From contig JAYSTK010000019.1 in assembly GCA_043719825.1 (NCBI GenBank), forward strand, positions 1-45,022: 45,022 nt of DNA. Reading direction: 5' to 3'. This DNA is from Candidatus Kaiserbacteria bacterium (GTDB taxonomy: Bacteria; Patescibacteriota; Minisyncoccia; Phycocordibacterales; UBA918). Each line of letters opens with the position of its first letter. Position 1 is the stretch's first letter. This document shows, one piece after another, positions 1,191 to 38,822 of the stretch. A program made the position numbers and the translations under genes. Below the pieces are notes generated by a model. It worked only from the letters and a program-made list of their open reading frames with translations. It did not search any database and was not told the origin of the DNA.

Positions 1191-1640
1191 ATGAATGATA
1201 TACCCTCACATAAAAATAAAGTAACAGTACTTGGTGGCGTAGCTCAAAGTAATGTTCCGCTACCGCTGTATAGTTCTCGTCCACAAGCAGGATTTCCTGC
1301 CCCGGGAGACGATCAGATTGAGAAAGTGCTCGATATTAATGATCTTGTGGTCAAAAATCCCGCAAGCACCTTTTTTGTTCGTGTAGAAGGTGATTCTATG
1401 GAAGGAGCAGGAATATTTTCCCACGATGTACTTGTGGTCGATCGGTCTTTGACCCCCAAAGATGGGTCAATCGTAGTCGCTGCAGTGTATGGTGAGATGG
1501 TCGTCAAACGACTTGTGAAACGTGGAGATACTCATATTCTCGCTTCTGAAAACTCCAACTATAAACCTATCTTAATAGAAGGGCATGACGATTGCTTTAT
1601 GTGGGGTGTGGTGGTCGGGAGCGTACGACAGTTCTCATAG
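1191..1640 (+). CDS. umuD: UmuD-like S24 self-cleaving peptidase (pol V accessory subunit)
   Basis: 149 aa. QAGFPAPGDD parallels E. coli UmuD QCGFPSPAADY, giving a putative cleavage site at A33-G34. GDSM (Ser69) and VKRL (Lys106) are 37 residues apart, as in UmuD Ser60/Lys97. The ATG lies 4 nt after the upstream stop. Confidence 0.85.
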   Translation: MNDIPSHKNKVTVLGGVAQSNVPLPLYSSRPQAGFPAPGDDQIEKVLDINDLVVKNPASTFFVRVEGDSMEGAGIFSHDVLVVDRSLTPKDGSIVVAAVYGEMVVKRLVKRGDTHILASENSNYKPILIEGHDDCFMWGVVVGSVRQFS

Positions 1641-1695
1641 AGATGGTCGGTTGTTTTCATCAAAAGAACATAAAATATAATTGTATAATGATTAC

Positions 1696-2082
1696 ATGAA
1701 AGGATATATTATAAATATTGAAAAGGAAACCATTGCTAACGAAAACTACCGACGAGTGCTGTATACAGCCAAAAATTGTCAGCTAGTACTCATGTCTATC
1801 AAACCTGACGAAGAAATAGGCGAAGAAGTACACGCGTTAGATCAATTTATTCGTATTGAAGAAGGGAAAGGTGAGGTGCACATGGATAACGTGGTACACC
1901 AGATCCATGATGACCATGCAATAATTATTCCCGCAGGAATGAAACATAATGTTATTAATACTGGAGATACGGACCTTAAGCTGTATACAGTGTATTCGCC
2001 TCCGGAACATAAAGATGGCACGATTGTTCCCACAAAAGAGGATGAAAAAGAAGAACATTTTGATGGGGTGACAACAGAGTAA
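1696..2082 (+). CDS. cupin-fold protein
   Basis: The ATG at 1696 is preferred over the TTG at 1681. EEVHALDQFIRIEEGKGEV...IIPAGMKHNVINTGDTDLKLYTVYSPPEH is a typical two-motif cupin barrel. TATAAT at 1684-1689 sits 6 nt before the ATG. Confidence 0.7.
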   Translation: MKGYIINIEKETIANENYRRVLYTAKNCQLVLMSIKPDEEIGEEVHALDQFIRIEEGKGEVHMDNVVHQIHDDHAIIIPAGMKHNVINTGDTDLKLYTVYSPPEHKDGTIVPTKEDEKEEHFDGVTTE

Positions 2083-2136
2083 TGTATACAAATTTTGCGT
2101 ATACACCCACGCTATGAGCGGGTGTATACTTTTCGT

Positions 2137-3381
2137 ATGAAATGCATCGGACTCATGGATTGTAATAATTTTTTCGTATCCTGTGAGCGACTTTTTCGTC
2201 CTGACCTTATTAAAAAGCCAGTTTTTGTATTATCTGCCAACGATGGCTGTGTAGTTGCACGAAGTCAGGAAGTAAAAGACCTAGGTATTCCTATGGGAGT
2301 GCCGTTTTTTGAGGTCAAAGATATGTGTAAAAAGCATCACATAACAGTTTTTTCCTCTAATTTCACTTTGTATCGTGACATTTCATCTCGGGTAATGAGT
2401 GCACTTAAAGATGAATTTGACCGCATAGAAGTCTACTCAATAGACGAGGCATTTTTTGAAATCGAAAATCTGAATGAGGAGGATATTATGGCTATGCGTG
2501 AGCGTATTATTCTAAAAACCGGCATTCCTATTTCTTTTGGGATTGCAGCAACCAAAACGCTCGCAAAAATTGCAAATGCAGAGGCGAAACGTGCAAATGG
2601 GGTGAATATTCTTTCAAAAGAACAGGCGTTAGAAATAGGAGGTGAAATCTCGTGTGGAAGTGTATGGGGAATCGGACGACAAACGAGTGCAAAGCTTTCA
2701 AGATTTAAAATTCATACCATACATGATCTTTTGAATGTTGGGCTTACTTTTATGCGTCAGCATTTTGGAGTGCAGGGAGAACGGCTATACTTCGAGCTCT
2801 CTGGAACACCCGCCACACTTGCGGATTCTGTCGAACTTCCTCCAGGAAGCATAGCGAGCACAAGATCGTTTGGAAAAAAGGTAAACGATAAAGAAACGCT
2901 GAAGCAAGCACTTGCACATCATGTAACAAATATTGGGGAAAAATTACGTAAGGAAGAAGTTGCCGCATCTACTCTCACCATACTTTGTGCTCCTAGTCGG
3001 TATGGAACCTTTGCTTTACGCAAAGGAAGTGTACATCAGCCACTTTTGATTCCCACGAATGATACAAAGACTCTTCTCAAAGCAGCATTTGAGATGCTTG
3101 ACATGCTCTATGATAAAGAAGTGCCCTACAATAAAGCGGGCGTGATTGTGAGTGGCCTTATTCCTGTACCTTTCGTTTCCGAAAATTTATTTACGCTGTC
3201 ACCTAAAGAAGATTCCCGTGAACTTAATGCAGTCATCGACGGACTAAATAGTAAATATGGAAGACAAACAGTCACATTAGCAGCGTCATGCGGAGGGAAT
3301 AGTTGGAAAGAACGTACAGAGAGTCGATCGCCCGAATACACTACTTCATGGACGCAAATACCTAATGTTAAAGCCATATAA
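2137..3381 (+). CDS. umuC: Y-family DNA polymerase, UmuC-like
   Basis: The ATG at 2137 is preferred over the TTG at 2095. MDCNNFFVSCERLFRPDLIKKPVFVLSANDGCVVARSQEVKDLGIPMG parallels the UmuC N-terminus (CDVNAFYASCE..FRPDL..KPVVVLSNNDGCVIAR). A SIDEAF catalytic motif is present. TG-TATACT at 2123-2130 lies 6 nt before the ATG. Confidence 0.85.
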   Translation: MKCIGLMDCNNFFVSCERLFRPDLIKKPVFVLSANDGCVVARSQEVKDLGIPMGVPFFEVKDMCKKHHITVFSSNFTLYRDISSRVMSALKDEFDRIEVYSIDEAFFEIENLNEEDIMAMRERIILKTGIPISFGIAATKTLAKIANAEAKRANGVNILSKEQALEIGGEISCGSVWGIGRQTSAKLSRFKIHTIHDLLNVGLTFMRQHFGVQGERLYFELSGTPATLADSVELPPGSIASTRSFGKKVNDKETLKQALAHHVTNIGEKLRKEEVAASTLTILCAPSRYGTFALRKGSVHQPLLIPTNDTKTLLKAAFEMLDMLYDKEVPYNKAGVIVSGLIPVPFVSENLFTLSPKEDSRELNAVIDGLNSKYGRQTVTLAASCGGNSWKERTESRSPEYTTSWTQIPNVKAI

Positions 3382-4821: not shown

Positions 4822-4838
4822 AGATATTCAATCAGAAT

Positions 4839-4870
4839 AAACAAAAACTCCCTTCGGGGAGTTTTTGTTT
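4839..4870 (+). terminator. rho-independent terminator
   Basis: AAACAAAAACTCCC-TTCG-GGGAGTTTTTGTTT is a perfect 14-bp stem with a tetraloop and a T-rich 3' arm. It lies 18 nt after the stop at 4821. Confidence 0.85.
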
Positions 4871-4923
4871 ATATACAGAAATTTCTATTCGAGTTTCTAG
4901 CAAAGTGGTAGGATAGATAAATC

Positions 4924-8114: not shown

Positions 8115-9986
8115 ATGAATAAATGGGGGAATTTGATGCTCGACATCCTTAAACGAACTCTTATGAGTGGTGTTGCACTTGTGAGCGTATTTTTTGTATC
8201 AGAAAATGCGTTTGCTGCAACAATTCATCAATACAAAGATACCCTATCTGATTCAGCACCAAGCGAGTATTCTAATCATACCGTTGAGTTTAAGACGACA
8301 GTTCCAATTCCATCCGGAGGGTACATACGTTTTATTCCTGACAGCGGAGATTTCACTGTTCCTACCCTAAATTTTGACTATGAAAACGTTGAGTTAGCGG
8401 TTTCTACCTCTTCAGGATATGTCATTCGCTCATCCACATCATCTGTCAGTGCAACTGAGGATGGTGTGACAATTACTCCTGGTTCATCAGGCAAAATTGA
8501 AATATCGCTTAATAGTACCGTTCCGATACCTGCGAATGCATTCCTTAGAATACGAATGGGGAACAATACTCAAAATGCGACAAATACTGATTTGGGGTTT
8601 CAAAATCCGCCAACAACGGGAACATTTGAATATCATATTGAAACAGGCGGAGGAGGAAGCGACTCACGAGTGAGAGGTTTGGTTGCAATCATAGATACTG
8701 TTGGAATTGGTCCGATTGACACTCGAGAAATCGAACCACCTTTTCGATTTAATGGTGCTCCAACAGGAACACTCTCAGGGACAACACAAGTAGTACAGAT
8801 GTCACTTGAGACTAACGAGTTTGCTCAGTGTCGGTATAGTAACGCAGTAGGAACACCCTATTTTTCGATAGGGAATCAGTTCAGCAGTACATTTGTAACT
8901 GTCCACTCAAAAAATCTCACGGTAGCGACAAGTACTACGTATACATTCTACATACGATGTATAGATGATGAAGGAAATGAAAACCTAGATGATTATATTA
9001 TTTCATTTTCTATTCCCGCGTTTCCAGAAGGGTCACCAGGAAATGATGGAGATAATGAAGGACAAGGTTCTGGAACAGGCTCAGGATCAGGAGACTCGGA
9101 CCCCGGCGATGGATCACCTAATGGAGGCGATGATACTAGTGGAGGAACTTCAGGTGGTGGAGGAGGTGGCGGTGGGGGGGGAGGTTCAGGATCGAGTAGT
9201 GGAGGAGATGATGGAGGGGGTGGATTTGAAGGTGTTGGAAAGGCATACCAGAGTGGTGATGGACGAGTCATAATTAACGGATATGCGTTTCCGCGGAGTC
9301 TAGTCTATGTTCTTGTCGACGGTACTATCGCTGATAGTGTTACCGCAAGTGGACTTGGTGAATTCTCCGTTACTCTCGATGCCATAGCACGAGGTGTATA
9401 CAATTTTGGAATCTATGCGATTGACAAAAACAAAGTAAAATCGAGCACGTTTACGACAACATTTACGGTGACTGGGGCGCGCGGCTCAACACTTTCAAAT
9501 ATAAACGTAATGCCTTCAATTAAGGTTACACCGGATCCTGTAGAACCTGGTCAAACCCTACTCGTGTCAGGATTCGCTATCCCCAATGCAGTTATTACCC
9601 TTGAAAATCAGCAAGACAAATCAAGTGTGAGCTTAAAATCTTACACAACCAATTCTGACGCAAATGGAGCATGGAGTGTCTCAATTGAAACAACAGGATT
9701 TAAAAAGGGAACATATAAAGTACGTGCCAAAGCAAAACAAGAAACAGGAGATTTGGCACAAACGAACTACTCAAACTATACATTTTATGGAGTTGGTGAA
9801 TCAGCGGCTACACCGCGTTCTTCTGATCTTAACCGTGACGGCAAAGTAAACCTTATCGATTTTTCGATATTATTATTTTGGTGGAATAGCGATGGAGGAA
9901 ATTCAAATCCTCCGGCTGACATAAATGGCGATGGGCGAGTAAGTTTGACAGACTTCTCTATTTTGATCTTTAATTGGACTGGATAA
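8115..9986 (+). CDS. secreted surface protein: SAPS-box N-module, Gly/Ser linker, Ig-like repeats, C-terminal dockerin
   Basis: 623 aa. The signal peptide ends AFA, followed by DTLSDSAPSEYSNHT. A G/S/D-rich linker runs through about 9040-9230. The C-terminus carries two EF-hand-like dockerin segments, DLNRDGKVNLIDFSILLFWW and DINGDGRVSLTDFSILIFNW. Confidence 0.8.
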   Translation: MNKWGNLMLDILKRTLMSGVALVSVFFVSENAFAATIHQYKDTLSDSAPSEYSNHTVEFKTTVPIPSGGYIRFIPDSGDFTVPTLNFDYENVELAVSTSSGYVIRSSTSSVSATEDGVTITPGSSGKIEISLNSTVPIPANAFLRIRMGNNTQNATNTDLGFQNPPTTGTFEYHIETGGGGSDSRVRGLVAIIDTVGIGPIDTREIEPPFRFNGAPTGTLSGTTQVVQMSLETNEFAQCRYSNAVGTPYFSIGNQFSSTFVTVHSKNLTVATSTTYTFYIRCIDDEGNENLDDYIISFSIPAFPEGSPGNDGDNEGQGSGTGSGSGDSDPGDGSPNGGDDTSGGTSGGGGGGGGGGGSGSSSGGDDGGGGFEGVGKAYQSGDGRVIINGYAFPRSLVYVLVDGTIADSVTASGLGEFSVTLDAIARGVYNFGIYAIDKNKVKSSTFTTTFTVTGARGSTLSNINVMPSIKVTPDPVEPGQTLLVSGFAIPNAVITLENQQDKSSVSLKSYTTNSDANGAWSVSIETTGFKKGTYKVRAKAKQETGDLAQTNYSNYTFYGVGESAATPRSSDLNRDGKVNLIDFSILLFWWNSDGGNSNPPADINGDGRVSLTDFSILIFNWTG

Positions 9987-12263: not shown

Positions 12264-12297
12264 TATAGCGCCCGCAGGACACCCTGCGGGCGCTATA
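12264..12297 (+). terminator. GC-rich hairpin terminator
   Basis: TATAGCGCCCGCAGG-ACAC-CCTGCGGGCGCTATA is a perfect 15-bp stem lying 21 nt after the stop. Its 3' arm runs into tandem TATAAT hexamers at 12294-12305. Confidence 0.75.
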
Positions 12298-27300: not shown

Positions 27301-29097
27301 GATGCGTCTGGAAACGAAACTAACAAAACAATTGATGGTATATATCGGACCAGCGTAACCGTGAGTCAAGGAGAAACCATTCGCTTTCTACAAAACATTA
27401 GTGCGGCAGGCACGCTTGATGAAGTATGTACGCTGTTTGGAGTTCAATCGCCGGGATCGAATAACAATAACTATGCCATTTGTCTTGAGCAGGTAGCAGG
27501 AACAGATCGTATGAGTATTGCAGAGAACGTTCAAAGTTCTGATTCTGACGGAACCGGTGTTGTTCTCGCTTCAACAACCGTGGCATACTCACCTGGATGG
27601 TACGAAGTTGAAATTCGATGGGGCACAAACAATACAATATTAGCGACTCTATATGATAGTAGTGATGTATTTGTTGCATCAACATCAGTCGTCGACACTT
27701 CGTACACCTCGGGAGGTATTGGATTTACCTATTGGTTCCAAAGCGGTGGATGGGATCATTACACATCGAGAGCACTATTAGCAACTGAACCTACTGCAAC
27801 CTTAGGTTTTGAACAGGGTCGGGGTGGTGCATCGTGGCTCGCTGCGCTTAACACAAAAGCAAGTGGCGTAGCCGCCGGCACAATTATTCGACCTCGATTT
27901 GTTATTGAAAATACAGGGCTTCAAGTAATCGATGCATACCGACTCATGTATGCAGACAAAGGTGCTTCACCAAGCTGTGAAGCAGTGAGTTCGGGATCAT
28001 ATTCTGCAGTGCCATTACAAGCTTCATGTACTGGATCTCCTCTTTGTATGCAAGCGTCAACGCATTTTGTAAATAATGCATCAACGACCGATGTGCTTGG
28101 TGGTGCTGGTACATTTACTCAGGGGCAGATAATTGAAGATCCTTCAAACACAACTCAAAATATTACAATTCCGAGTTCGAGCTATACGGAGGTTGAATAT
28201 TCAATTACTGTTACGAATGATGCCGTTGCACCGAATTACTGTTTACGTGTAAGCGATAATGGAACAGATATTGATTCATATACTCGTGTAGCAGAACTAG
28301 AACTTGTCTTTGTTCCAAATATTACTGCACTTTCATTAAATGCAGGGAATGACATTATTCTTTTACCGGGTGTAACGACAACCATATATGCTACAGGAAC
28401 AGTTACTGATCAAAATGGATACGCTGATATTGTATTAGCGACAACTACCATGTTCCGTTCTGGTGTAGGAGAAAGTTGTTCCGTTAACACTAACAATTGT
28501 TATATTGCGGGTCCATCGCGATGTTCATACTCCAATTGTTCTGGCGATTCATGTAATATTTCATGTACAAGTGATTTCTATTTCCATACAGATCCGACGG
28601 ATACAGGAAGTACGTTTGATGCAGAAACATGGAGAGCACTTCTAAGAATAGAAGACCAAGGTGGTAGCTTCGCGACCGCTACAGCTCCATCAATTGACCT
28701 CATAACACTCCGAGCACTTGATGTAAATAGTTTGATTAATTATGGTTCACTCGAAGTTAATGCAAATACTGGTTCTTACAATGCCTCGACAACATTCCAA
28801 AATCTTGGTAATGACTCGATTGATGTAGCCATAGAAGGCACCAACCTTTCAGATGGTGTTTCTTCAGCAATTCCAGTAAATGAGCAAATATTTGCTACAT
28901 CCACATTTACGTATAGCGCATGTGTGTTCTGTACGGCGCTTTCGGCTTCGTCCACAAACTATGAGCTTGATCTCACGAAGCCCGCATCAACGACTCCCCC
29001 CGTGACCGACGATGTATTTTGGGGAATTGAAATTCCGTTCGGCATTTCTGCCGCACCTCACCAGGGTACTAACATCTTCTACGCAATTAGTGACTAG
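12325..29097 (+). CDS. giant (5590 aa) membrane-anchored multidomain surface protein
   Basis: A single uninterrupted ORF with an N-terminal TM (FVLISIFTVVLLSTS, about 12507-12560) and acidic low-complexity stretches. It then carries three tail-collar-like modules, two FN3-like modules with a YYWRVR/YWWRVR strand, eight W-x-G-x-x-W repeats and long G-x-F-x-N..GTF-x-HN..TV-x-F solenoid repeats. DUF2341-like sequence (WSKRKRITVTN...DDLRVTN...IWVKIP...VYVYYGNGGA) is at 26881-27180, followed by a LamG-like region. The C-terminal module is shared with 34748-36580. Confidence 0.9.
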   Translation: MLGLLVQLKNFYFKKTSKEFKKHIFRALQLPLAFIRRVEAIDYENSLFVSSASHTKSYITKFVLISIFTVVLLSTSTVESQFSLTRKLDTINVFSERVESTTWKNIEALSEQNVSKDGLYQEFSKNNSAYRDVEKIIDNSSSTQEPQPNEQIIDSEIEQQPIDIQGEGTTETSSPEINQEINTDTEASSDIESESSTDSTNEATELPTNAIDEPVSQNEYTPAEFGLFKKVTGVFTFAQESVTSSLSDSVSDQIEIDTESEEIITPTGESITEDIDLIESASTTEADTISINENSDVNETTNVEENTNTLNTAHITFSDFALPNLESGQFITNVQLRMSLAALITSNREDYPVLDVEYLLNEKWENAGSVILDGEVSNALNGGYYLFALPTFTTVDELDSLSVRITERGELLEEDTVFIDAVWLEVDTETFDRDLLRERLLPEVFKKLSLPRMHTLLSDTLDFSRDDDPVFVLRYESQRNAGVRFLRNIFGRNLAEVKTVTFVRKGVGIVDIEPLVDMTNEGLWTIQLPQNAQDDLEPGTYTIEIVIDEGGKVFTDSLDFQWGLLAVNPHKTEYEIGEVATIALAALSPSGNTLCDAELALYIIDPLEYIHRSTIQKSGLCNGNNVIDVPDYSAEFTPTVSGEYEMYVENIGTNGEVLAHTVDTFMVVEQQSFSITRQSQTRIYPRAEYSMALRVEAEDAYVGELMERVPRDFVIGETDASITMNGDIQELRWGISLKGGIPQTFTYSYDAPDISPFLYTLGPAEIGNNTQSDVVPQLENTATQTPSSAFESPVIENVIDEATEINQPLQLEDTEPTSVPVLNETTTQQEPEEIIAPETPESTILQNEDTFETVAPEENAFEIVPTLEQPLIGEVTQLTLTPLPQANGFIEHRRWQIASDATGSMIVFWTDGASIPSGWTCISCTSTSTFYQRFPLGGATYGTQAGVATTTHTADGAVNASGLSNAESFGTSFVSINSHSHTITPIIGSTTTLPAYRQLRVIQNNSAGSPATVPAGAILIFDGSLPSGWVQYTDLDSRYPRGENAITSAGSNTHIHTATATLSAASGSTYDSRTGGTQVTAAGINHTHTLSTSTPPVNHEPAYMQVIFATSSIATATPLTAIALWSDTPPAGWLNRSAQPTDPFYNRYIKGGSTYGTTGGGDSHTQGNFTASSSAAVGTDNARTGTAGSSNTHTHAIDLSNFSTASNTPPSVTVIYAKYYGLVPIYTQSAFRWYVNANSVSPTDAWPTSTVDVLENEAIDTSFTPLKNGDVLRLRLQLNVSNSTTTGEDFKLQFGTTTALCTAVSAWTDVGSATSSAAWIGHNNSSPSDGATLSTSTLTGTDVLETYEEQNPTIVLPNAIGIGQEGEWDFVLKQNAASPNTNYCFRMVEADGTELFAYTQYPLLITNAQPNAPSLHVLFDNEKVSTTTPQFEFAGTDAEADDLTYQIQIDSDYTFGSVDVDRNSASNPTQFANIISPADKNPYTNGETIRFSLTSALTNNTTYYWRVRTQDPTGSNNWGSWSTIFSFTIDSSLTNSAWFQTTEEQFDTDTLVGTDALATDLVQLSVGSTTGTTTSSQIDFLDGTVGNAWGSLSFNDDETVGDIKYRIQYYSDATASWANIPDIDLSGNSAGFDTSPVSLLSLNTDIYRLIRIVAVFTNSGGSPLLYDWTITWGYRIETPTLNSPFPNEKVSTTTPTFEFETTDPQSDDLEYEIQWSTTYAFTASTTRNSSTSLGFINSENGGDTSPFTSGQTIQFTVQPADILTNGTTYWWRVRARDPLGSNQFSLYTDPLSFTVDTSTSVSTWFQTTQSQFETDVLSGTIALVTGSVTVATTSDESLMVYAEGIVTTPRYREWDGTTWSSEASALGVGAPINWIVTKASPIKNEFITGTLGTDADVNIQVFKNGSWGNIQEITTSIPNTNMRGFDIAYEQTSGDALVVACDGDADPSYYVWNGSAWVSGGTIDLTAGNSCGWIKLVSNPTSDEIIVITRDTSGTAYETLVWSGSAWGTNRKIFGSMQSTQANHEGIAAEYEESGNQAVIGVSNGTASSFIWTAWASATWTVPAAVALGDDFESGTIVADDGSDNLALCYIDHDNDIGAVRWTGAAWAGQTELEIAWAGTDTVFNDRPVDCSFEVGGARDGYIMVAYSDTTNVRHRAWNGTAWDVGETNVSTIQDAPRVQLRRTGANLIQLVAFDDTNDRYDYSYWNGTIWNAFQTLETDASVGATPFKEPFMNAVRNPGIIGSAVVSPGIDFYDGSGPYWAQLSWTDSEAGGSTVLYQVEYYDGDSWELVPNGLIPGNSTGTTTSPINLSNVLPVSTYNEIRPVANLTCNLGTCPSLSDWTVTWAAGISISGTAQAYDQSTNVISGTVGVSLNGVLQVGKTGTISGGVWSIANVNAAPGDIVSVFVNGANDINEAVSVTRYDGIGDITGMRLYERHLALGSNDATSTPFTNAEIGLYDFTNDEDIFFDLSGTVLTLCADVGCGDVELYTASTTIYRPQGTVVTHDIEINGTFRPEGNTIYLSGSWDNNGTTTSATSTVVFTATSTNETIDETSAISPSFYNLTFGTTTGNATWTPITALDVNGALSITRGTFSRASVNLNIAGNTFVGVNGFITGVGTTTFDGTGTAIYTDSNAVTQNIGRIVVDGTSKTLQLGSAALMQSINIGSDDILDVSTSNYSLTVLTNFINSNTYVARSGTTTFAGTTTNLTITAGGDAFYNLAFTGAGGSWSFTEGDLSIGNDFVMSTGTITMPTGTTTVTGTFANNGGTFAHNNATVVFDSALSETVTLLGTAFTNAFYNVRFSGSGSWVFTESNATTSNDFRITQGTVVLPSSTLAIGGHFANSAGTFAHNNATVRFTSSSAKTIDTNSSFNHLTFVGSGSWSFIDTNVTALEDVSISNGTVTFPSNTFTIGGSLINSSTLTHNSGTVLFNSIDSGETIALGNSPLHNLLINSGTGGWTVSTHATTTGSTTLTSVGSFTVTSGQTLSVGGVFTNSVGGASTTWTGSTLSLESGAYSINLKTSGADAYNILRVKANTDIKMWNSSASSYTIDSTGSLYSQDHSAVDGDLYIFGGYERTSGTEYWSYATDFDGTSLGTSSRQVDVRFASGANATFTGSVFTVMGTTTGTTTIRNQGSGTYTLSVSGGTSTASYYDFGDLGLTGVSLQDATKVTSFGNGRFAPGINTGTGLTVSSSTIDVNAGLQIFGVEFSTTTAITATNVTQTGGVPLSYWWFRNSAGNIDGEAFDSDTGDPGSVRWDDSSLSITVSGIVYDDDETTPLGAPTCGVGGTPVRIVVENGGTYDGACDGSGVFTIPGVVIVGDPTLTVFLNGAGGGKKAVTVTKTPTENITDLNLIVGRVITRHEDTSALTIEDMATYDSTDDGDIPFTAATGTSPLLTVHADNELHIASTTTFAPAGTVTVIGGGTGNTFDGSLHIGANATFTGAGTTTYSIGGSLLQNNGGVFSPASSTILMTATTTGKGVSSVAGETIYVNELQFSGVGGGWNQTGTLSSTGNIYLATGTLTGTGNITLTNGSFYGNGLLSLGSGTTTLSVTNTLGGTQAWTFGNLVLGTGSTTGTTTPATNATTTVLGKLTIGTGHFFGIQGGVLDLQGSGLVFVENGNFVEGTSTVRYSGTQGSQVLSTNYYNLVVQALGGSPTYTGTGIGISVLNNLTVGGTNTTTLTLNTNDPALDVNGNVSVLTNGTLVGSNSAIFNVAGSWDNDGTYTGSGGTVTFDGSGIHAIAPGSSAFSNAVVNATGNYTLTESATATAAFTITTANDFIVSNNVSLAIGGTFTNSLGGADTVWNSSTLYLYGGGDYQINASTTSDTYSKLSLGTSTQIRMWNSSASSTDLASTASLYSQDHGNSNGDLYVYGSYIKISGTDYWSYATDFDGTILNGTERQVDVRIASNGSMLYTGGGLAVVGVNTGSTTIQNQGSGTYSFRIGGTASTTWSYYDLAHTNASGLTFSGTPSVTNLSYGNFTLGIASGTALTVGGSVIDQNPAKTFTNNNFSTSTGVSGFNVTATSTTVSSWRFTNHSGSIDGESYDFDPDGDPGYIVWDDSSASLSFSGRVYSDEGTTASGVGICNGVMQSVTLRVAGLTTYTTDCDLGTGAYSISGITYSPGDSFVVYLTPPGAERGSTVSEDPVTSIGNLDIYENRVIVRHESSDPLSIADMSLWDSSDDANIPFTAIDASPDTLTLPANRKLLVWTGKEFEPNGNVTVSGGGAGTAYDGTLELFANAIFDATGSEVHTIGGNLIMGTGATFDDETSAFTFTTTGASRTIDTNDQSFYNLTINGSGSFTTPNAVFDIGNDFTLTQGTVTLPTGTTTVAGSFLNTGGTFIQNGGHMRFTGSSAKSIRAGSSSFGTTTFAGTGTYTYLSTNATTTGDFTILSGTVSAPTGTLSIGGDFTNMGIYTHNSGIIKMTSALASTTIAASSSDLGSLTIAGAGTFSMTNTNSTLAGTLSIQQGALTLASGTLSVGGSFLNTGGSFAHASGTILFNSADTGESINGGTSEFNIISIAAPSGGYTITGNATTTGNFSLTSATQFTLQNGLILNVGRVFTNLVGGAATTWTGSTIKLGSGSSYTVNSKTTGSDVYNVIALRGNTDIRLWNSSATTTLLDSLSSLYSQDNAAIDGELYIYGDYSRTTGADYWSYATDFDGTSISTSSRAVTVRHASGATSTFSGGTLSIIGAANATTTITNQGSGTYAMGVSGGTLSALNYAFRNSNATGLSLSGTTTVTSIANGDFELALNGGSLLTVSSTTINYNASMVVSGMRFATTSVISGTNISVVGTTPSSWTFTTHRGNLAGESYDNDGIDACGSIRWSDSACLLTQQSAYRWRQNNGGEGVPDSEWFDTSWSKRKRITVTNSDAIGYTNAVVEVTIPYDSDMQTDFDDLRVTNGGGTTTLNFAREIYTASTEATIWVKIPILATSTETDVYVYYGNGGATYGGVGTSTFSVYDDFEDDNITEYSGDTTLFNVGTAYAYQGTYGLDASGNETNKTIDGIYRTSVTVSQGETIRFLQNISAAGTLDEVCTLFGVQSPGSNNNNYAICLEQVAGTDRMSIAENVQSSDSDGTGVVLASTTVAYSPGWYEVEIRWGTNNTILATLYDSSDVFVASTSVVDTSYTSGGIGFTYWFQSGGWDHYTSRALLATEPTATLGFEQGRGGASWLAALNTKASGVAAGTIIRPRFVIENTGLQVIDAYRLMYADKGASPSCEAVSSGSYSAVPLQASCTGSPLCMQASTHFVNNASTTDVLGGAGTFTQGQIIEDPSNTTQNITIPSSSYTEVEYSITVTNDAVAPNYCLRVSDNGTDIDSYTRVAELELVFVPNITALSLNAGNDIILLPGVTTTIYATGTVTDQNGYADIVLATTTMFRSGVGESCSVNTNNCYIAGPSRCSYSNCSGDSCNISCTSDFYFHTDPTDTGSTFDAETWRALLRIEDQGGSFATATAPSIDLITLRALDVNSLINYGSLEVNANTGSYNASTTFQNLGNDSIDVAIEGTNLSDGVSSAIPVNEQIFATSTFTYSACVFCTALSASSTNYELDLTKPASTTPPVTDDVFWGIEIPFGISAAPHQGTNIFYAISD
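15031..15987 (+). repeat. three tandem ~100-aa phage-tail-collar-like (MdpB-like) modules inside the giant CDS
   Basis: The units are about 15031-15350, 15364-15660 and 15675-15987. Each starts I/L-x-F/W-x-(D/G)..P-(S/A)-GW, carries HxH motifs (SHSHT; NTHIHT and NHTHT; DSHT and NTHTHA), and ends in a PAY/PPS + hydrophobic strand (LPAYRQLRVIQ, EPAYMQVIFA, PPSVTVIYAKY). Confidence 0.55.
17884..18960 (+). repeat. eight ~50-aa W-x-G-x-x-W repeats (beta-propeller-like) inside the giant CDS
   Basis: The motifs are WDGTTW 17884, NGSWGN ~18034, WNGSAW 18178, WSGSAW 18328, WTAWASATW 18478, WTGAAW 18628, WNGTAW 18795 and WNGTIW 18939. The spacing is about 150 nt throughout. Confidence 0.6.
19340..26790 (+). 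repeat. three tandem protein-level super-repeats (about 2.7, 2.4 and 2.3 kb) inside the giant CDS
   Basis: The anchor YWSYATDFDGT occurs at 21568, 23968 and 26275. The anchor DPG(S/Y)(V/I)(R/V)WDDSS / GSIRWSDSA occurs at 22072, 24475 and 26776. LYSQD(H/N)...GDLY-x-(F/Y)G and QNQGSGTY blocks recur in the same order. The nucleotide sequences are diverged. Confidence 0.7.
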
Positions 29098-29311
29098 TGA
29101 GGCTTGTGGAAATGCCACATTTCTTTGTTACTTCGTATGTTTTCTCCATCACTGCACGTCCATGTACAGCTCAGTCGCAAACATACTTGCGCCTTACAGT
29201 CGCTGTTCAGGTTGTATGATAATTTTCATAAACTCAAATTATCGACAACCTCTTACAAAGCTCCAAGTATTCGCTTCTCACCTTGAACTGTATCCATTTA
29301 CACAGGCCTCA
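29098..29311 (+). ncRNA. candidate structured element, copy A (stop-codon-proximal family)
   Basis: It starts 1 nt after the giant-gene stop. The closing helix pairs TGAGGCTTGTGGAAATG (29098-29114) with CATTTACACAGGCCTCA (29295-29311), 17 positions with 1 mismatch and 1 G-U. Conserved ACATTTCTTTGTT is at 29117-29129 and GAACTG at 29285-29290. Compared with copies B and C it carries a ~90-nt insertion. Confidence 0.4.
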
Positions 29312-29368
29312 ATTTCTCTAAATACATTCTGTTAATTAACAGCAAAATTTTTTTGACTCTTCTCAAAT

Positions 29369-29377
29369 GGTACACTG
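29369..29377 (+). promoter_or_regulatory. extended -10-like element
   Basis: TGgTACACT at 29369-29377, 9 nt upstream of the ATG at 29387. Confidence 0.3.
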
Positions 29378-29386
29378 TAACTACAT

Positions 29387-30916
29387 ATGAAACGTGGGTT
29401 CATTTCTGTATGTTTAACGCTCTTCATATTACTCGCGTATGGTGAGATGTTTTATACTGTCCGCGCTGCAGACATTGACCCTCCCTCAATAAATAATGTT
29501 CAGATAACAAATGTTGCTGAAGATACCGTAACCATCACCTGGGAGACTGACGAAGACGCAGACTCGCTCGTAAACTATGGACTTCAAGAAAACTACGGAA
29601 TTGTACATATTCCTGTAGTAGATAAAACAACTCATTCAATAACTCTTGATGCACTTGAGCCTGGGCGCACATATTTCTTCCGCGTTGTATCTTCAGATTT
29701 TGAAGGCAACCAGGGAATTTCTGCAAACTACAAAGTACTCACCGATGGAACACCATCTTCAGGAGCTGATGCGGGTGAAGGCGAAGCGACTGCAACAGAA
29801 GAAAATCAAACCGTACAAGAAGAAACAAAATCTCAAACGGAATCACAAACAGATGCACAAATTACAGAAGAGATAGTAAAACAAATTAAGCAAATTGAAT
29901 CGCCTGAAAAGCTTGAAGAAATATTAAATGAAACAGTAAAGGCTATACAGGGAATTACTGAGGATCTTACTATCGTCGGTCCCCCGACAGTTATTCCAGA
30001 AACGACCAGTGCGCTAATTAAATGGACCACCGATCGTGAAGCAAGTTCAGAAGTGCAATTTTCTCCAAGTGATGAGTATGTAGAGGGTGATTATAGCTAC
30101 TCACAAGCTAGTACGGATGGTAGTGTGACCGATCATGAAATCAGACTAATAGGTCTTGTACCGTTCACCGAATACCATTTTAAAGTTATTTCAAAAGATT
30201 CAATTGGTATTTCGGGAGAAAGTCGGGACTTTACATTTAAAACAAAAGCATCGCTTCCCGACATTAGAAATTTACGTATCGTTAAAGTAGAAGAAAATTC
30301 TGCAACGCTTGCATGGGACACAACCGTTCCCGCTAAAGCACTTATTGAATATCAAGATCTTACGAAAGGCCTCCAAAATTCAGTGGGCCGACCAACACTC
30401 GCTACAACACATCAGATGCAAATTTCTGATCTCACTCTCGGCACTAGATACGTTGCATTCGTAATTGCAGAAAATGCGGGAGGCGACCGAGTAAAAAGCA
30501 ATCCTATTACGTTTATTACGGTGAAAGATTCAGCTCCTCCACTTATTAGTAATGTTACAAATGAATCCACTATTTTCCCTGGCGGGGAATCAAGAATTCA
30601 AACTATTATTGAATGGGATACCGATGAGCCGGCTTACTGCACTATGTCATATCGCGAGGGAATAACCGGTGGTGTCGACCCTACAATAATAGAGTCTGAA
30701 ACCATTTCGTATGCAGAAGAGCATGTCGAAGTTATCGTGGAGTTTGCTCCTGCAACGGTATACCAATTTTGGCTCACCTGCTCAGATGATTCAAATAATA
30801 AAATTGACTCTGAAAATTATGTGCTCTTTACACCGATTCAGGAAAAAAACATTATTGATATTATTCTTGAAAACTTCGAGTCGACGTTTGGATGGGTTAA
30901 GAACGTCAACAACTAG
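29387..30916 (+). CDS. secreted protein with four fibronectin type III-like domains
   Basis: 509 aa with a signal peptide. There are four units of the form P-x-I-x-N-V..T-x-A-x-I-x-W-x-T-D-x-x-(A/S)...Y-x-F-x-V, for example VTITWETDEDADSLVNYG...GRTYFFRVVS and ALIKWTTDREASSEVQF...FTEYHFKVIS. An acidic Glu/Thr/Gln linker follows the first domain. Confidence 0.8.
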   Translation: MKRGFISVCLTLFILLAYGEMFYTVRAADIDPPSINNVQITNVAEDTVTITWETDEDADSLVNYGLQENYGIVHIPVVDKTTHSITLDALEPGRTYFFRVVSSDFEGNQGISANYKVLTDGTPSSGADAGEGEATATEENQTVQEETKSQTESQTDAQITEEIVKQIKQIESPEKLEEILNETVKAIQGITEDLTIVGPPTVIPETTSALIKWTTDREASSEVQFSPSDEYVEGDYSYSQASTDGSVTDHEIRLIGLVPFTEYHFKVISKDSIGISGESRDFTFKTKASLPDIRNLRIVKVEENSATLAWDTTVPAKALIEYQDLTKGLQNSVGRPTLATTHQMQISDLTLGTRYVAFVIAENAGGDRVKSNPITFITVKDSAPPLISNVTNESTIFPGGESRIQTIIEWDTDEPAYCTMSYREGITGGVDPTIIESETISYAEEHVEVIVEFAPATVYQFWLTCSDDSNNKIDSENYVLFTPIQEKNIIDIILENFESTFGWVKNVNN

Positions 30917-31037
30917 TATGCGCATTTTCGACGCATTTCTTTGTTGCATCACTCGATTGTTCATTCGTCGTACGTCTGTGTACGCCTTACTCGCAAACGA
31001 GCTTGGGCCGCGAACTGCACTCGAAAATGCGCATACT
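30915..31037 (+). ncRNA. candidate structured element, copy B
   Basis: A 17-bp closing helix pairs AGTATGCGCATTTTCGA (30915-30931, including the last 2 nt of the stop codon) with TCGAAAATGCGCATACT (31021-31037). GCATTTCTTTGTT is at 30933-30945. The hairpin is CGTAC-GTCTGT-GTACG. TCGCAAAC and GAACTG (31012-31017) are also present. Confidence 0.45.
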
Positions 31038-31071
31038 GTGACCCAATTACGAAACGTGGCGAAGTCACCAC

Positions 31072-31175
31072 TTTCGAGAGACATTGCGCAGACGCATCGA
31101 GCATAGTAAAAAATTCACAGATTTTTATGCGTGTCTATCAAAATGTGTGATTGAGAAAGAGTTTTTTGATTTTTG
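31072..31175 (+). ncRNA. candidate structured cis-element, copy 1 (homolog of 40401-40498)
   Basis: It is roughly 80 percent identical by eye to 40401-40498. Nested helices are CGCAT (31093-31097) with ATGCG (31127-31131), and AAAAAT with ATTTTT. An asymmetric loop carries CGAGCATAG, followed by the AGAAAGAGTTTTTTGATTTTT tail. It ends 26 nt before the ATG at 31201. Confidence 0.4.
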
Positions 31176-31200
31176 TACTGTATAATAATTTTAATCTCGC

Positions 31201-32523
31201 ATGGCAAAACCACTTATCGTCTGCAGAAATCTCGACATTACCTACAATAAAGGGAAGTCGAATGAATACCGCGCTCTTCAATCGGTAAACACTGATATAT
31301 ATGAAGGAGAATATATTATTCTTTTCGGTTCTTCAGGATGTGGAAAGTCGACGCTCATGTATGCAATTCAAGGTTCACTTCCACCTGCAGGAGGTGCGCT
31401 TCTTATTCGAGGAGATGATATTTATTCGTATCCACCACAAGACCGTGTGTACTTCCAACGGTATATCATGGGAATTATTTTCCAATCCTTCAACCTCATT
31501 GGTTCACTTTCTGTACTCGACAACGTTGCACTCCCAATGATTTTCTGTGGCGTTGATAAAACAACTCGAGAACGTCGTGCGCAAATGCTCCTCGATCGTT
31601 TTGGTGTAGGACACGTTTCAGATAAACGACCAAATATGCTTTCAGGAGGTCAGCAGCAACGTGTCTCTGTTGCGCGTTCTATGGTGAACGATCCGCAGAT
31701 TCTGCTTGCGGACGAACCTACCGGAAACCTCGACTCAGTGTCTACGCAACAAGTTATGGATAAAATTGATGAAATTAACACGTTTGACCAACGTACTATC
31801 ATTATGGTCTCGCACAATGCGGCACATCTTTCCTATGCGCATCGTGTGTATTACCTCAAGGATGGCAGGGTAGTACGAGAAGTCGCGAACCCACAGCGTA
31901 AACAGATTAAACCTGTAAAAGAAGGGGAGACCATCGTGACCGAACTCGAACAACTCGCGCGCCTTTTTCCTTACGACTCTGTAGATACACTACGAGTAAA
32001 AAGCCTTGTAAATTTTCTTACGCAGCAATACACCTTTGACCAACTCGTGCGACTTGAACGTGCTGTTGATCTTCTCATTCAGGGTAAGATCCACAAAAAG
32101 AAATTTATTGAGACGCTCATGCGAAAATACGAAGAGGGAGGAATAGAAATGGAACGTTCAGATGCTGAACGTATGGCCGCGGTATCAATAACAATTATTA
32201 AACAAGCTAATGATGTGCATCGTTTCCGCTCAAAAAATGATTCCGATGCTGTGTTTTTCGAACAACATAAATTTGCTGAGCGCATTAAAGAATACCTTAT
32301 TGAATATCATCGAGTTTCGCTTTCAAAAAAAGCGACTGAGAACCTAACCGAAATGATAGCCGACCGCCTTTCAGGAATTGAAGGAGAAGCACAGTTCCAT
32401 GCTCGCATGATTGAGAAAGAACGCACCGGGGGACTGGGACTTCAGGAGAAAATCGCGGATGATATTACGAGGTATATGGAGAAGCTGGTAGCATTAGGCG
32501 TCGACGTCAGCTACAAAGCCTAG
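31201..32523 (+). CDS. ABC transporter ATP-binding protein (MacB/LolD-like) with ~210-aa helical C-terminal extension
   Basis: Walker A GSSGCGKST, Q-loop IFQSFNL, signature LSGGQQQRVSVARS, Walker B ILLADEPTGNLD and H-loop MVSHN all lie in the first ~230 aa. The remaining ~210 aa are charged and helical with no motif I recognise. Confidence 0.9.
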   Translation: MAKPLIVCRNLDITYNKGKSNEYRALQSVNTDIYEGEYIILFGSSGCGKSTLMYAIQGSLPPAGGALLIRGDDIYSYPPQDRVYFQRYIMGIIFQSFNLIGSLSVLDNVALPMIFCGVDKTTRERRAQMLLDRFGVGHVSDKRPNMLSGGQQQRVSVARSMVNDPQILLADEPTGNLDSVSTQQVMDKIDEINTFDQRTIIMVSHNAAHLSYAHRVYYLKDGRVVREVANPQRKQIKPVKEGETIVTELEQLARLFPYDSVDTLRVKSLVNFLTQQYTFDQLVRLERAVDLLIQGKIHKKKFIETLMRKYEEGGIEMERSDAERMAAVSITIIKQANDVHRFRSKNDSDAVFFEQHKFAERIKEYLIEYHRVSLSKKATENLTEMIADRLSGIEGEAQFHARMIEKERTGGLGLQEKIADDITRYMEKLVALGVDVSYKA

Positions 32524-32644
32524 AGCATAGAAATTTGGAACATTTCTTTGTTGGAACTACAGTTTTCTCCTTCACCGTACGTTGAGTACGTTTCATTCGT
32601 AAACTTTGTTCCGCCTCGAACTGTTCTCAAATTTCTATGCTCTA
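32521..32644 (+). ncRNA. candidate structured element, copy C
   Basis: A perfect 17-bp closing helix pairs TAGAGCATAGAAATTTG (32521-32537, including the TAG stop of the ATPase gene) with CAAATTTCTATGCTCTA (32628-32644). ACATTTCTTTGTT is at 32540-32552. The hairpin is CGTAC-GTTGA-GTACG. TCGTAAAC and GAACTG (32619-32624) are also present. Confidence 0.45.
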
Positions 32645-32740
32645 GATTTCTGACTTCAGTCCGTATCAGAAGGATTTTGAAGATGCGCTTTGAATCTGTG
32701 CGCAGCAATGTACGAAATCCCAACGATTTTGATAAAAGTA

Positions 32741-32798
32741 TAAAAAAGAAAACAGCTCCAGCAGGGAAGACGGAGATGTCTTCGCTCAGCGGGAGCTG
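32741..32798 (-). terminator. rho-independent terminator of the minus-strand gene
   Basis: On the minus strand, CAGCTCC...GGAGCTG (32753-32759 with 32792-32798), with an inner GAAGAC/GTCTTC helix, is followed by TTTTCTTTTTTA (complement of 32741-32752). It lies 20 nt after the stop of 32818-33252. Confidence 0.65.
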
Positions 32799-32817
32799 CC
32801 TATAGTGATGCTGGACT

Positions 32818-33252
32818 CTATGCAACTTCTAAGCGATGTGCGTCGATAAATTCCCGTTTGATTTCATTCGACAGTTTTTCTACGTCGTCATTATCCACTC
32901 GCCTGCCAAACAGTGCAACGGCAACAACGGCGAATGCCTGAAGACGCGATGAAGCGCTGTCGCGGTCTTCAGAACGCTGTTGGATCTTTGTACTTTTAAA
33001 GCCACTACGCGCAAAGGCCTCAAATGCAATGATGAACGCAGAAGCAGAAAGATCCTTTAGACCGGCAACCAAGCGAACGAAGTTGGTCGCGGCCTCTTGG
33101 CTGAAGTCATTTTTGATACCAACGTAAAACTTTTCGAGTATTCTGGAATTGAGATCGCTTTGTGTTGGCCCACGTCCAGCGTAGTAGCCAGCTTCAAATA
33201 CGAAACACTCTTCTCCACGCATCCAATTCTCAACAGTTCTAATTAAGTTCAT
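32818..33252 (-). CDS. hypothetical alpha-helical protein, the only minus-strand gene
   Basis: 144-aa ORF with an ATG start, its own terminator and no hydrophobic segment typical of secretion. I recognise no family motif (the sequence begins MNLIRTVENWMRGEECFVFEAGYYAGRGP). Confidence 0.55.
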   Translation of the reverse strand: MNLIRTVENWMRGEECFVFEAGYYAGRGPTQSDLNSRILEKFYVGIKNDFSQEAATNFVRLVAGLKDLSASAFIIAFEAFARSGFKSTKIQQRSEDRDSASSRLQAFAVVAVALFGRRVDNDDVEKLSNEIKREFIDAHRLEVA

Positions 33253-33470
33253 TCAGGACCTTCATAGAAGAAGAAAAAAGTACACTGACTCAAATCGAGT
33301 CGCCTATCAATACTGTACTATGATTCAATCAAAAGTCAAATTTATAAAGTTATGTGACACAGAAATGAGTAAATATTTTTTAAAAAATTTACTTAAGAGA
33401 TGACGACAGATCATAACTTATACAGCCGCGTGCATTCCTTATTATGGTGTTTCTATTTACTATATAGAGT

Positions 33471-36580: not shown

Positions 36581-36604
36581 GTATAATTGATTGAAATTTT
36601 AGGT

Positions 36605-36630
36605 AAGCTGCTGTTGTTCGACAGCAGCTT
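36605..36630 (+). terminator. hairpin terminator
   Basis: AAGCTGCTGT-TGTTCG-ACAGCAGCTT is a perfect 10-bp stem lying 25 nt after the stop at 36580. Confidence 0.65.
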
Positions 36631-36691
36631 CTTGCGTTAACACCCACAGTATTTGATAATGATACTGCACCGCAAGCCGCGTGCGTTTTGA

Positions 36692-38766: not shown

Positions 38767-38822
38767 GCATAGAAAATACACATGACACTAATCTATAAGA
38801 TTAGTGTCATGTGTATTTATGC
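38767..38822 (+). terminator. long perfect hairpin after 37635-38759
   Basis: AAATACACATGACACTAATC (38774-38793), loop TATAA, GATTAGTGTCATGTGTATTT (38799-38818) form a 20-bp perfect stem. GCAT (38767-38770) pairs with ATGC (38819-38822) as an extension. There is no clear U-tract. GAGCATAG at 38765-38772 overlaps the hairpin base. Confidence 0.55.

Follow-up and report, generated by a model that had tools for sequence, protein, structure and literature searches.

A dispersed, insertion-polymorphic family of hairpin repeats anchored at stop codons in Paceibacteria

Introduction

Small palindromic repeats of the ERIC, YPAL, Correia/NEMIS and REPIN kind are the closest described systems to the element treated here. 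De Gregorio et al. 2006 reportedly described YPAL insertion close 3' of stop codons and its co-transcription with the upstream gene. ERIC and YPAL are co-transcribed and affect the stability of the upstream mRNA, YPAL has internal repeats and dyad-symmetric target sites, and NEMIS hairpins are RNase III substrates (PMC2229807). For ERIC, ribosome-dependent refolding near the upstream stop codon has been proposed (PMC2229807). Here we have analyzed a hairpin element that occurs in three copies (A, B and C) at the ends of consecutive genes in a 45,022-nucleotide stretch of Candidatus Kaiserbacteria bacterium DNA (assembly GCA_043719825.1, contig JAYSTK010000019.1, positions 1 to 45,022, forward strand), hereafter called the window.

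The three copies are members of an undescribed dispersed, insertion-polymorphic hairpin repeat family in Paceibacteria, found in Kaiserbacteria- and Taylorbacteria-like bacteria of the Candidate Phyla Radiation (CPR). The kind of element is known; no named family matches it by sequence or model, and literature searches returned no description of such a family in CPR bacteria. Its unusual features are hypervariable, compensated termini around a fixed, mismatched subterminal core, strict stop-codon anchoring, an optional conserved module, and replacement by other hairpin families at the same stops. How CPR/Patescibacteria end and delimit their transcripts is poorly understood, and these bacteria are not amenable to genetics. 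The family offers a handle for mapping 3' ends in metatranscriptomes, and its presence or absence across strains is a natural experiment.

Results

Three hairpins at consecutive gene ends

An earlier note, made from the letters of the window, had placed three covarying structured elements after the giant gene, the FN3 gene and the ABC ATPase gene, and its coordinates and motifs for the three were all found present. The copies and their parts are given below, with scores from the covariance model introduced further on.

29098-29311, + strand: copy A, long form, 214 nt, directly 3' of the TAG (29095-29097) of the 5590-aa giant gene
29098-29114 / 29295-29311: closing helix of A, 15 Watson-Crick pairs, 1 G.U and 1 mismatch
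29118-29129, + strand: core 5' box CATTTCTTTGTT of A, pairing with GAACTG at 29285-29290
30914-31038, + strand: copy B, 124.6 bits
30915-30931 / 31021-31037: closing helix of B, a perfect 17 bp that takes in the AG of the FN3 gene's TAG (30914-30916)
30934-30945, + strand: core 5' box of B, with its partner GAACTG at 31012-31017
30970-30983: GTAC/GTAC hairpin of B
30991-30998: inner-helix 3' strand of B, TCGCAAAC
32520-32645, + strand: copy C, 121 bits
32520-32537 / 32628-32645: closing helix of C, a perfect 18 bp that takes in the entire TAG (32521-32523) of the ABC ATPase gene
32541-32552, + strand: core 5' box of C, with its partner GAACTG at 32618-32623
32577-32589: GTAC/GTAC hairpin of C
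32597-32604: inner-helix 3' strand of C, TCGTAAAC

That stop-codon nucleotides form part of the B and C helices, as had been claimed, was thus also seen (the AG of TAG in B, the whole TAG in C). The two helices are the sole long perfect inverted repeats within 28900-33000. The box CATTTCTTTGTT has exactly three matches in the 45 kb, all of them inside A, B and C, and three or more matches occurred in none of 100 shuffles (0/100). Compared with shuffled sequences, the folds had z-scores of -4.8 (B), -10.6 (C) and -4.5 (A). When the covariance model was run over the whole window with filters off, A, B and C were found, with 121-125 bits on the + strand versus 27-33 bits on the - strand, and no further copy was detected in the window. 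Copy A scored 59 bits, the match covering its 5' two-thirds.

Each of the three copies starts at a CTAG that includes the upstream gene's TAG stop. This tetranucleotide is about six-fold depleted across the window (29 observed versus 167 expected), and the boundaries of A, B and C hold 4 of the 29.

A rod with a fixed core and compensated ends

We have derived the anatomy of the element from the alignment and consensus folding of 11 copies, comprising those in the window and others from related contigs. The usual form measures ~125 nt, while long forms of 200-250 nt carry an extra module. As a single strand, each copy folds into one long rod. This is closed by P1, an 18-bp helix in the consensus and 17-20 bp in every copy, beyond which pairing ends abruptly. 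An internal loop of 1 nt / 2 nt separates P1 from P2, a 7-bp helix of fixed sequence (G-CA.TTC / GAA.TG-C) with a conserved T.C (pyrimidine-pyrimidine) mismatch. A pyrimidine internal loop (TTT / CTC) follows, then the short helix P3 (GTTGC / GCGC), with a U.G pair in 10 of the 11 copies, and then P4, a covarying helix of 10 bp. Beyond P4 come a large loop and the GTAC/GTAC (GUAC) hairpin. The linkers between P1 and the core are constant, as is the length of P1 (17-20 bp).

This fold changes two of the earlier assignments. The box CATTTCTTTGTT, with its CATTTC, had been taken as unpaired; instead, its CA.TTC pairs with the GAA.TG of the GAACTG box, and one of these pairs is exchanged in a compensated manner (T-A to C-G) in copy L204. 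The motif TCG(C/T)AAAC is conserved, as had been noticed, but it is not merely a motif, being the 3' strand of the covarying helix P4. Conservation at the non-complementary core positions equals that of the surrounding pairing, which argues that a folded single strand, rather than a symmetric duplex site, must be recognised.

Standard pairs were present in 93.0% of the cells of the 11-copy alignment, versus 72.4% with shuffled 3' partners, and none of 500 shuffles reached the observed value; this control ignores phylogeny, a problem from which the following slid and same-site comparisons are free. When the partners were slid by 1-3 columns, 30-44% of the cells paired. Changes on both sides were found in 33 of the 42 pairs, and the cells with double changes numbered 100 (28 expected). 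Copy C and its same-site counterpart L204 differ at 7 of 17 P1 positions, all compensated, so that both helices are perfect, and the compensated P2 exchange mentioned above (CATCTC / GAGCTG in L204) comes on top; the flanking ABC proteins are 94% identical. Between B and its same-site counterpart L215, five P1 pairs are compensated. The helices are maintained by compensatory substitutions, in line with the original view that covariation together with conserved loops does not describe a decaying repeat.

Between A, B and C, identity is 17-39% in P1 (about random), 75-100% in the core and ~60% in the middle. Across loci, P1 has retained similarity: the copies L120, L162 and L183b share TAGGACTT...GG, L204 resembles L096, and the family consensus is roughly TAgRACTTcCgcgTTTGG. 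The earlier description of 17-position helices that are completely different yet complementary therefore holds for the window alone; family-wide, the helix is homologous but fast-evolving.

Short perfect palindromes lie within several closing-helix arms, at about twice the chance expectation (window 30918-30925, ATGCGCAT; window 32531-32536, AAATTT; L202, GATATC; L215, AATATT; L120, TGCGCA). Where an arm holds such a palindrome, both arms also carry a common direct repeat.

Copies in other contigs

The earlier note had proposed a covariance-model search for further copies, and such copies were found in other contigs, Kaiserbacteria- as well as Taylorbacteria-like. At least nine of them, scoring 44-132 bits, lie on independent contigs (L162, L096, L127, L183 with two, L120, L202, L204 and L215). 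The census is at least 12 copies on 9 contigs, at 8 different loci, some of the copies being same-site pairs. Since A, B, C, L162, L183a and L127 went into the model, the scores of these six hold by construction; the six copies unseen by the model scored 44-121 bits, with E-values down to ~1e-29.

A scan of metagenome contigs with the core pattern given below gave at least 120 matches; among those listed, the copies of L162, L127 and L183 were recognised by script, L096 and the second copy of L183 by the covariance model, and L120 by a motif search and the covariance model. Orthologues of the ABC ATPase, those named being from Candidatus Kaiserbacteria or Paceibacterota, led to loci that yielded three more copies, at the B site in L202 and L215 and at the C site in L204 (identical to L205). 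The ribosomal protein S4 that adjoins an L183 copy is closest to Candidatus Taylorbacteria proteins; thus, members of the family occur in no fewer than two Paceibacteria lineages. Both lineages retain the T.C mismatch, the TTT/CTC loop and the U.G pair; in L183b the mismatch has turned into C.T.

A scan of GTDB species representatives with the pattern CATTTCTTTGTT-N38-52-TCGYAAAC gave 67 matches, which we rejected as chance: they were singles in unrelated taxa, without the flanking helix and GAACTG. Viral contigs searched with two patterns returned chance matches or none, and BLAST of the long form against phage and plasmid collections gave no match. With Rfam 15, neither the window nor 7 related loci gave a match at gathering thresholds, and none was obtained for the elements themselves at E up to 1 or up to 10. 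That the earlier note did not recognise the motif as a named RNA family is therefore borne out at gathering and permissive thresholds alike. No tRNA- or tmRNA-like origin was found.

Gain, loss and replacement at orthologous sites

All the relatives retrieved, with or without the element, keep the gene order giant gene, FN3, ABC ATPase, FtsX permease. Occupancy of the three sites in these relatives was as follows.

L204: element at the C site only, without A or B
L202 and L215: element at the B site only
L201, L203, L206, L210, L213 and L214: none at the A, B or C sites
L214:1792-1988, + strand: family Y, a related longer hairpin, at the B site, its helix starting in the TAA stop
L210:7957-8208 (also in L211), + strand: family Y, at the A site, its helix starting in the TGA stop

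In the second lineage, five Taylorbacteria-like relatives (L216-L221) are without the copy that follows rpsD in L183, at the rpsD-rpoA junction. The family is thus gained, lost or replaced between close relatives, and different long hairpins often occupy the same stop codons. The closing helix of family Y measures 19 bp and begins within the stop codon; the core of this family reads CATCTACnTyGTTGCC on the 5' side and CTAGTATCTGAGGG on the 3' side. In L203 and L204, inverted repeats of ATAGAAG-type simple repeats stand at stop codons instead of the element, and in L210 a plain 10-bp hairpin does so at one stop. The FN3-ABC spacer of L201 (L201:9860-10000) contains ACACATTTCTTCG, which matches the L202 core exactly and lies within an outer helix of 12 bp; it has no GAACTG box and is probably a degenerate copy missed by the model, judging from this sequence.

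The elements are therefore not conserved fixtures of these intergenic regions; they behave as a dispersed insertion element, the REP/MITE-like option (repetitive extragenic palindrome or miniature inverted-repeat transposable element) of the earlier note. Among other things, that note had set against its reading the combination of absence from orthologous regions and identity to a known mobile repeat; most loci do lack the element, but no known mobile repeat was matched.

Simple-repeat hairpins were seen at other stops as well. Long inverted repeats with ATAGAAG-type arms begin at the L203 stops at 9804 and 11321 and at the L204 stop at 2333, and those starting at the L183 stops at 2498 and 1968 (- strand) have ACGAAT-type arms (simple heptamer/hexamer repeats). 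Stop-anchored long hairpins thus seem a general habit of these genomes.

The ABC ATPase-FtsX permease junction, just 3' of the C site, holds 0 to 6 unrelated genes across relatives, and in L206 a 23S_rRNA_IVP (PF05635) gene lies between FN3 and ABC. Such variable gene content marks the FN3-ABC and ABC-FtsX spacers as hot spots of change. The ABC-FtsX junctions recorded are these.

Window 32646-33470: 144-codon antisense open reading frame (ORF)
L201:11324-17073: YD-shell protein and DAHP synthase
L206:11324-14715: ApbE and an NQR-like protein
L202:11321-11843: the junction in L202

Module M of the long forms

The ~90-nt insertion reported for copy A is present, but it is a conserved module and not random sequence.

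29192-29284, + strand: module M, the insertion domain of copy A, with the box AAGCTCCAAGTATTCGCTTCTCACC at 29258-29282

The 25-nt box AAGCTCCAAGTATTCGCTTCTCACC is identical in L214:1935-1959, the Kaiserbacteria-like copy of family Y, and in L120:1548-1572 (- strand), a long form of the window-type family from its Taylorbacteria-like subfamily. About 65 nt of the module are common to L120 and L214. Module M, a conserved domain, is optional; it is inserted on the 3' side of P4 and had no match in Rfam or in phage, plasmid or viral collections. The box contains UCACCU, which resembles the 3' end of 16S rRNA.

Anchoring and orientation

In A, B, C and their same-site counterparts, in L183a (after rpsD), L096 and L127, P1 starts -2 to +6 nt from the first base of the stop codon. 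Both family Y copies fall in the same range, one of them at a TGA. These anchored copies are sense to the upstream gene, the sense orientation being found at about 8-9 of 10 independent anchored sites; L162 is preceded only by a doubtful 30-codon ORF. The C-termini of the flanking proteins are equal in length with and without the element, which places it exactly at the gene end and not inside the gene.

TA..TA flanks with a purine start were found in 7 of the 11 copies. Upon insertion at the TA of a stop codon, such flanks would regenerate a TAR stop. TA is self-complementary, so that the flanks may just extend the helix, and the family Y copy at a TGA stop, which is without TA, speaks against a simple TA rule. 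In a base-by-base comparison of filled and empty sites for target duplications, the flanks were too diverged to align, and no direct duplication beyond the possible TA was seen at the copies.

A read-through or recoding peptide was considered and rejected. The frames that follow the stops of A, B and C are open for 61, 77 and 93 codons (B, 30914-31160; C, 32521-32805), and the core is read in one frame (ISLL) in all three. In the same-site copies L202, L204 and L215 the open frame ends at an in-frame TGA after no more than 5 codons, and the frame differs in other copies. The element was thus judged non-coding, and no reading frame is conserved among the copies.

Transcript ends in the window

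A terminator scan flagged only small internal hairpins within the elements. A local hairpin of the 5' arm followed by the T-rich core was tried as a hidden intrinsic terminator and dismissed, being present in A and B only and thus not a family feature. Downstream of copy A lies a separate hairpin.

29329-29360, + strand: small hairpin CTGTTAATTAACAG followed by CAAAATTTTTTT, 3' of copy A, in a segment that aligns with L204, which is without A

From its sequence, this hairpin looks like the giant gene's own intrinsic terminator and not like part of the repeat. At other gene ends of the window there are perfect hairpins of 15-20 bp, short in the loop and followed by a weak T-run or none (4837-4872, 12264-12297, 38774-38818 and 36600-36640), which suggests that a long gene-end hairpin is the organism's normal style of transcript end. 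A promoter-like region was read by eye ahead of each downstream gene; a consensus scan did not call these sites. Elsewhere in the window, adjacent Peptidase_S24 (UmuD/LexA-like) and impB/mucB/samB (UmuC/DinB-like) polymerase genes lie at 1191-3381.

Discussion

The reading that we favor, and to which we give about an even chance, is that of a dispersed hairpin insertion repeat of the ERIC/YPAL/Correia/REPIN kind, which forms the co-transcribed start of the 3' untranslated region (3'UTR) and is retained because the rod delimits the upstream transcript. The element would spread as a small non-autonomous DNA insertion, as those families do. Its RNA rod may delimit the upstream transcript as a 3' exonuclease barrier or as a double-strand-specific processing or termination-assisting site, and the conserved asymmetric core could dock a protein, be it a nuclease, an RNA-binding protein or a mobilising enzyme. 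With the stop codon in the base of the helix, a ribosome that terminates there would partly open the helix, which could couple the fold to translation.

The sense bias and the stop anchoring favor a role at the transcript level. Spread as DNA is favored by the two copies that are antisense or unanchored, by the patchiness of the distribution and by the cluster of copies in three consecutive gaps of the window. We have counted in favor of the proposed reading the precedent of ERIC, YPAL and NEMIS as stop-proximal, co-transcribed repeats that affect mRNA stability. The perfect 15-20-bp hairpins at other gene ends and the promoter-like segments before the downstream genes fit it as well.

Several observations weigh against this reading. 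Variable G.U pairs on the sense strand are about as frequent as A.C (11 versus 10 overall; 8 versus 3 in P1 alone), so that there is no clear signature of an RNA strand, and folds of about equal quality are obtained for either strand of the rods and for single-stranded DNA (ssDNA; DNA parameters). The functional RNA envisaged in the earlier note hence remains no more than plausible, the pair count failing to favor the RNA strand. In B, C and the metagenome copies, the flank sequences as read show no U-run behind the 3' arm, and copy A is followed by a separate canonical terminator with a T-run, also in L204; the element itself is thus not a classical intrinsic terminator. Two copies depart from the usual placement: L183b lies in the rpmJ-rpsM spacer in antisense orientation, its end 4 nt away from the start codon of rpsM, and L120 lies 6 nt past the stop of a convergent 294-codon ORF, to which it is antisense. 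As to mobility, no transposase, integrase or reverse transcriptase is encoded in the 45-kb window, and the termini vary from copy to copy, unlike what is typical of MITE ends recognised by a transposase.

The strongest competitor, a real contender that we nevertheless consider distinctly less probable, is a purely selfish ssDNA hairpin element (a REPIN, an IS200/IS605-derived palindrome or attC-like), mobilised in trans by an HUH/Y1 transposase or a tyrosine recombinase. The enzyme would read the mismatched core in a folded DNA strand, and the position at stops and the orientation bias would reflect target choice (terminator-like dyads, TA or the lagging-strand template) and not a role as RNA. 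IS608 TnpA, RAYTs and IntI all read conserved mismatches within hairpins. The copies are scattered and polymorphic for insertion, occur in both orientations and have TA..TA flanks in 7 of 11 cases; G.U is not in excess over A.C and the ssDNA fold is stable; and the window copies occupy three consecutive gaps, which suggests local spread. However, no candidate enzyme was found in the 45-kb window, and by their regional identities the window copies are old and diverged, with no near-identical recent ones. The compensatory maintenance of same-site copies over long divergence argues for selection at the host level, the sense orientation of 8-9 of about 10 anchored copies also speaks against it, and the family Y copy on TGA is anchored without any TA.

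A dedicated cis-regulatory RNA coupled to translation termination seems to us quite unlikely. Here, the closing helix would sequester the stop codon until the ribosome opens it, exposing or refolding the core, which would then recruit a factor for decay, termination or ribosome recycling of that cistron. This would suit the overlap or abutment of helix base and stop at nearly all sites, whichever stop is used (TAG, TAA or TGA), the sense orientation of most copies and the sequence-conserved internal loops between covarying helices. Against it stand the sporadic occurrence, orthologous genes being without the element or with unrelated hairpins, the two copies that are antisense or unanchored, and the lack of any conserved reading frame, recoding signal or strand-specific wobble signature.

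It is very improbable that the closing helices are pre-existing host terminator hairpins and that a core of ~90 nt alone is mobile, inserted into their loops. The hairpins of 15-20 bp with short loops at other gene ends of the window and the mutually unrelated appearance of the window copies' helices would fit this idea; we have rejected it because the closing helix is homologous between unrelated loci, and across lineages, with a constant length of 17-20 bp and constant linkers. An integron-type attC cluster without integrase, marking three genes as cassettes, is scarcely credible: the hairpins do sit at the 3' ends of consecutive ORFs and overlap their stops, and the succession of conserved box, unpaired spacer, second box and variable tip is reminiscent of attC, but the hairpin base has no RYYYAAC / GTTRRRY boxes, the outer 18 bp vary, the flanking genes are syntenic core genes in relatives without the element, and no integrase is encoded in the 45-kb window.

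A bolder reading can also be put forward, which we rate as rather unlikely. The family, family Y and the simple-repeat hairpins might together be a CPR-specific gene-end device, in which a stop-containing helix would be opened at each termination and the mismatched core and, in the long forms, module M would recruit a dedicated protein that sets 3' ends or decay. If true, this would amount to a mobile and exchangeable punctuation system for the near-monocistronic genes of reduced genomes.

In comparison with known systems, the family is closest to the small palindromic repeats. A classical MITE shares the small size, the non-coding nature and the dispersed copies with filled and empty orthologous sites, yet it has sequence-conserved terminal inverted repeats, whereas the arms of the window copies are 17-39% identical and conservation is subterminal. 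An integron attC site is also a structure-defined hairpin at ORF 3' ends with conserved unpaired positions inside; here, however, R''/R' core sites are missing, the genes on either side are not cassettes, and the base is variable and the interior conserved, the reverse of attC. REPIN and REP-RAYT populations are likewise hairpin-forming, extragenic and persistent repeats of ~100 nt, kept within a lineage with the pairing of their two halves preserved. Unlike these, the present family has no GTAG/CGTC-tagged REP unit of 20-40 nt, no RAYT was identified, the copy number is seemingly modest, and conserved positions differ between the two halves of the core (GCATTTCTTTGTTGC versus the reverse complement TGCAGTTCGAGGCGC), which are not inverted copies.

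Correia/NEMIS elements of Neisseria resemble the family as small TA-flanked inverted-repeat insertions, and the helix described here is also long enough for a double-strand-specific nuclease; the NEMIS hairpin is transcribed into mRNAs, where RNase III acts on it (PMC2229807). Correia elements differ by their conserved terminal repeats of 24-26 bp and an IHF site, and they have neither stop-codon anchoring nor a hypervariable closing helix. The 168-bp Yersinia palindromic sequences (YPAL/RU-2) share internal, and not terminal, conserved inverted repeats and insertion close 3' of stop codons, at or near dyad-symmetric targets, and are co-transcribed with the upstream gene. YPAL insertions make variable direct target duplications of 3-26 bp, whereas none is seen here beyond a possible TA, and the flanks here are a compensated helix that belongs to the unit.

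ERIC/IRU (127 bp) is of similar size and is likewise an intergenic, long imperfect hairpin made by pairing of its 5' and 3' ends, with filled and empty sites among relatives and TA-carrying termini; effects on co-oriented mRNAs are known for ERIC (PMC2229807). ERIC belongs to a different host phylum and has no sequence similarity to the family, and its termini and overall sequence are conserved, whereas the present family fixes no more than a subterminal asymmetric core and leaves the outer 18 bp free in sequence. The traits of the ERIC/YPAL type, an imperfect intergenic hairpin of 100-170 nt near stop codons with filled and empty sites, are all present. The family thus extends small palindromic repeats of the ERIC/YPAL/REPIN type to the CPR, and the combination of unconserved ends with a conserved, mismatched subterminal core constrains which enzyme or binding protein could recognise it.

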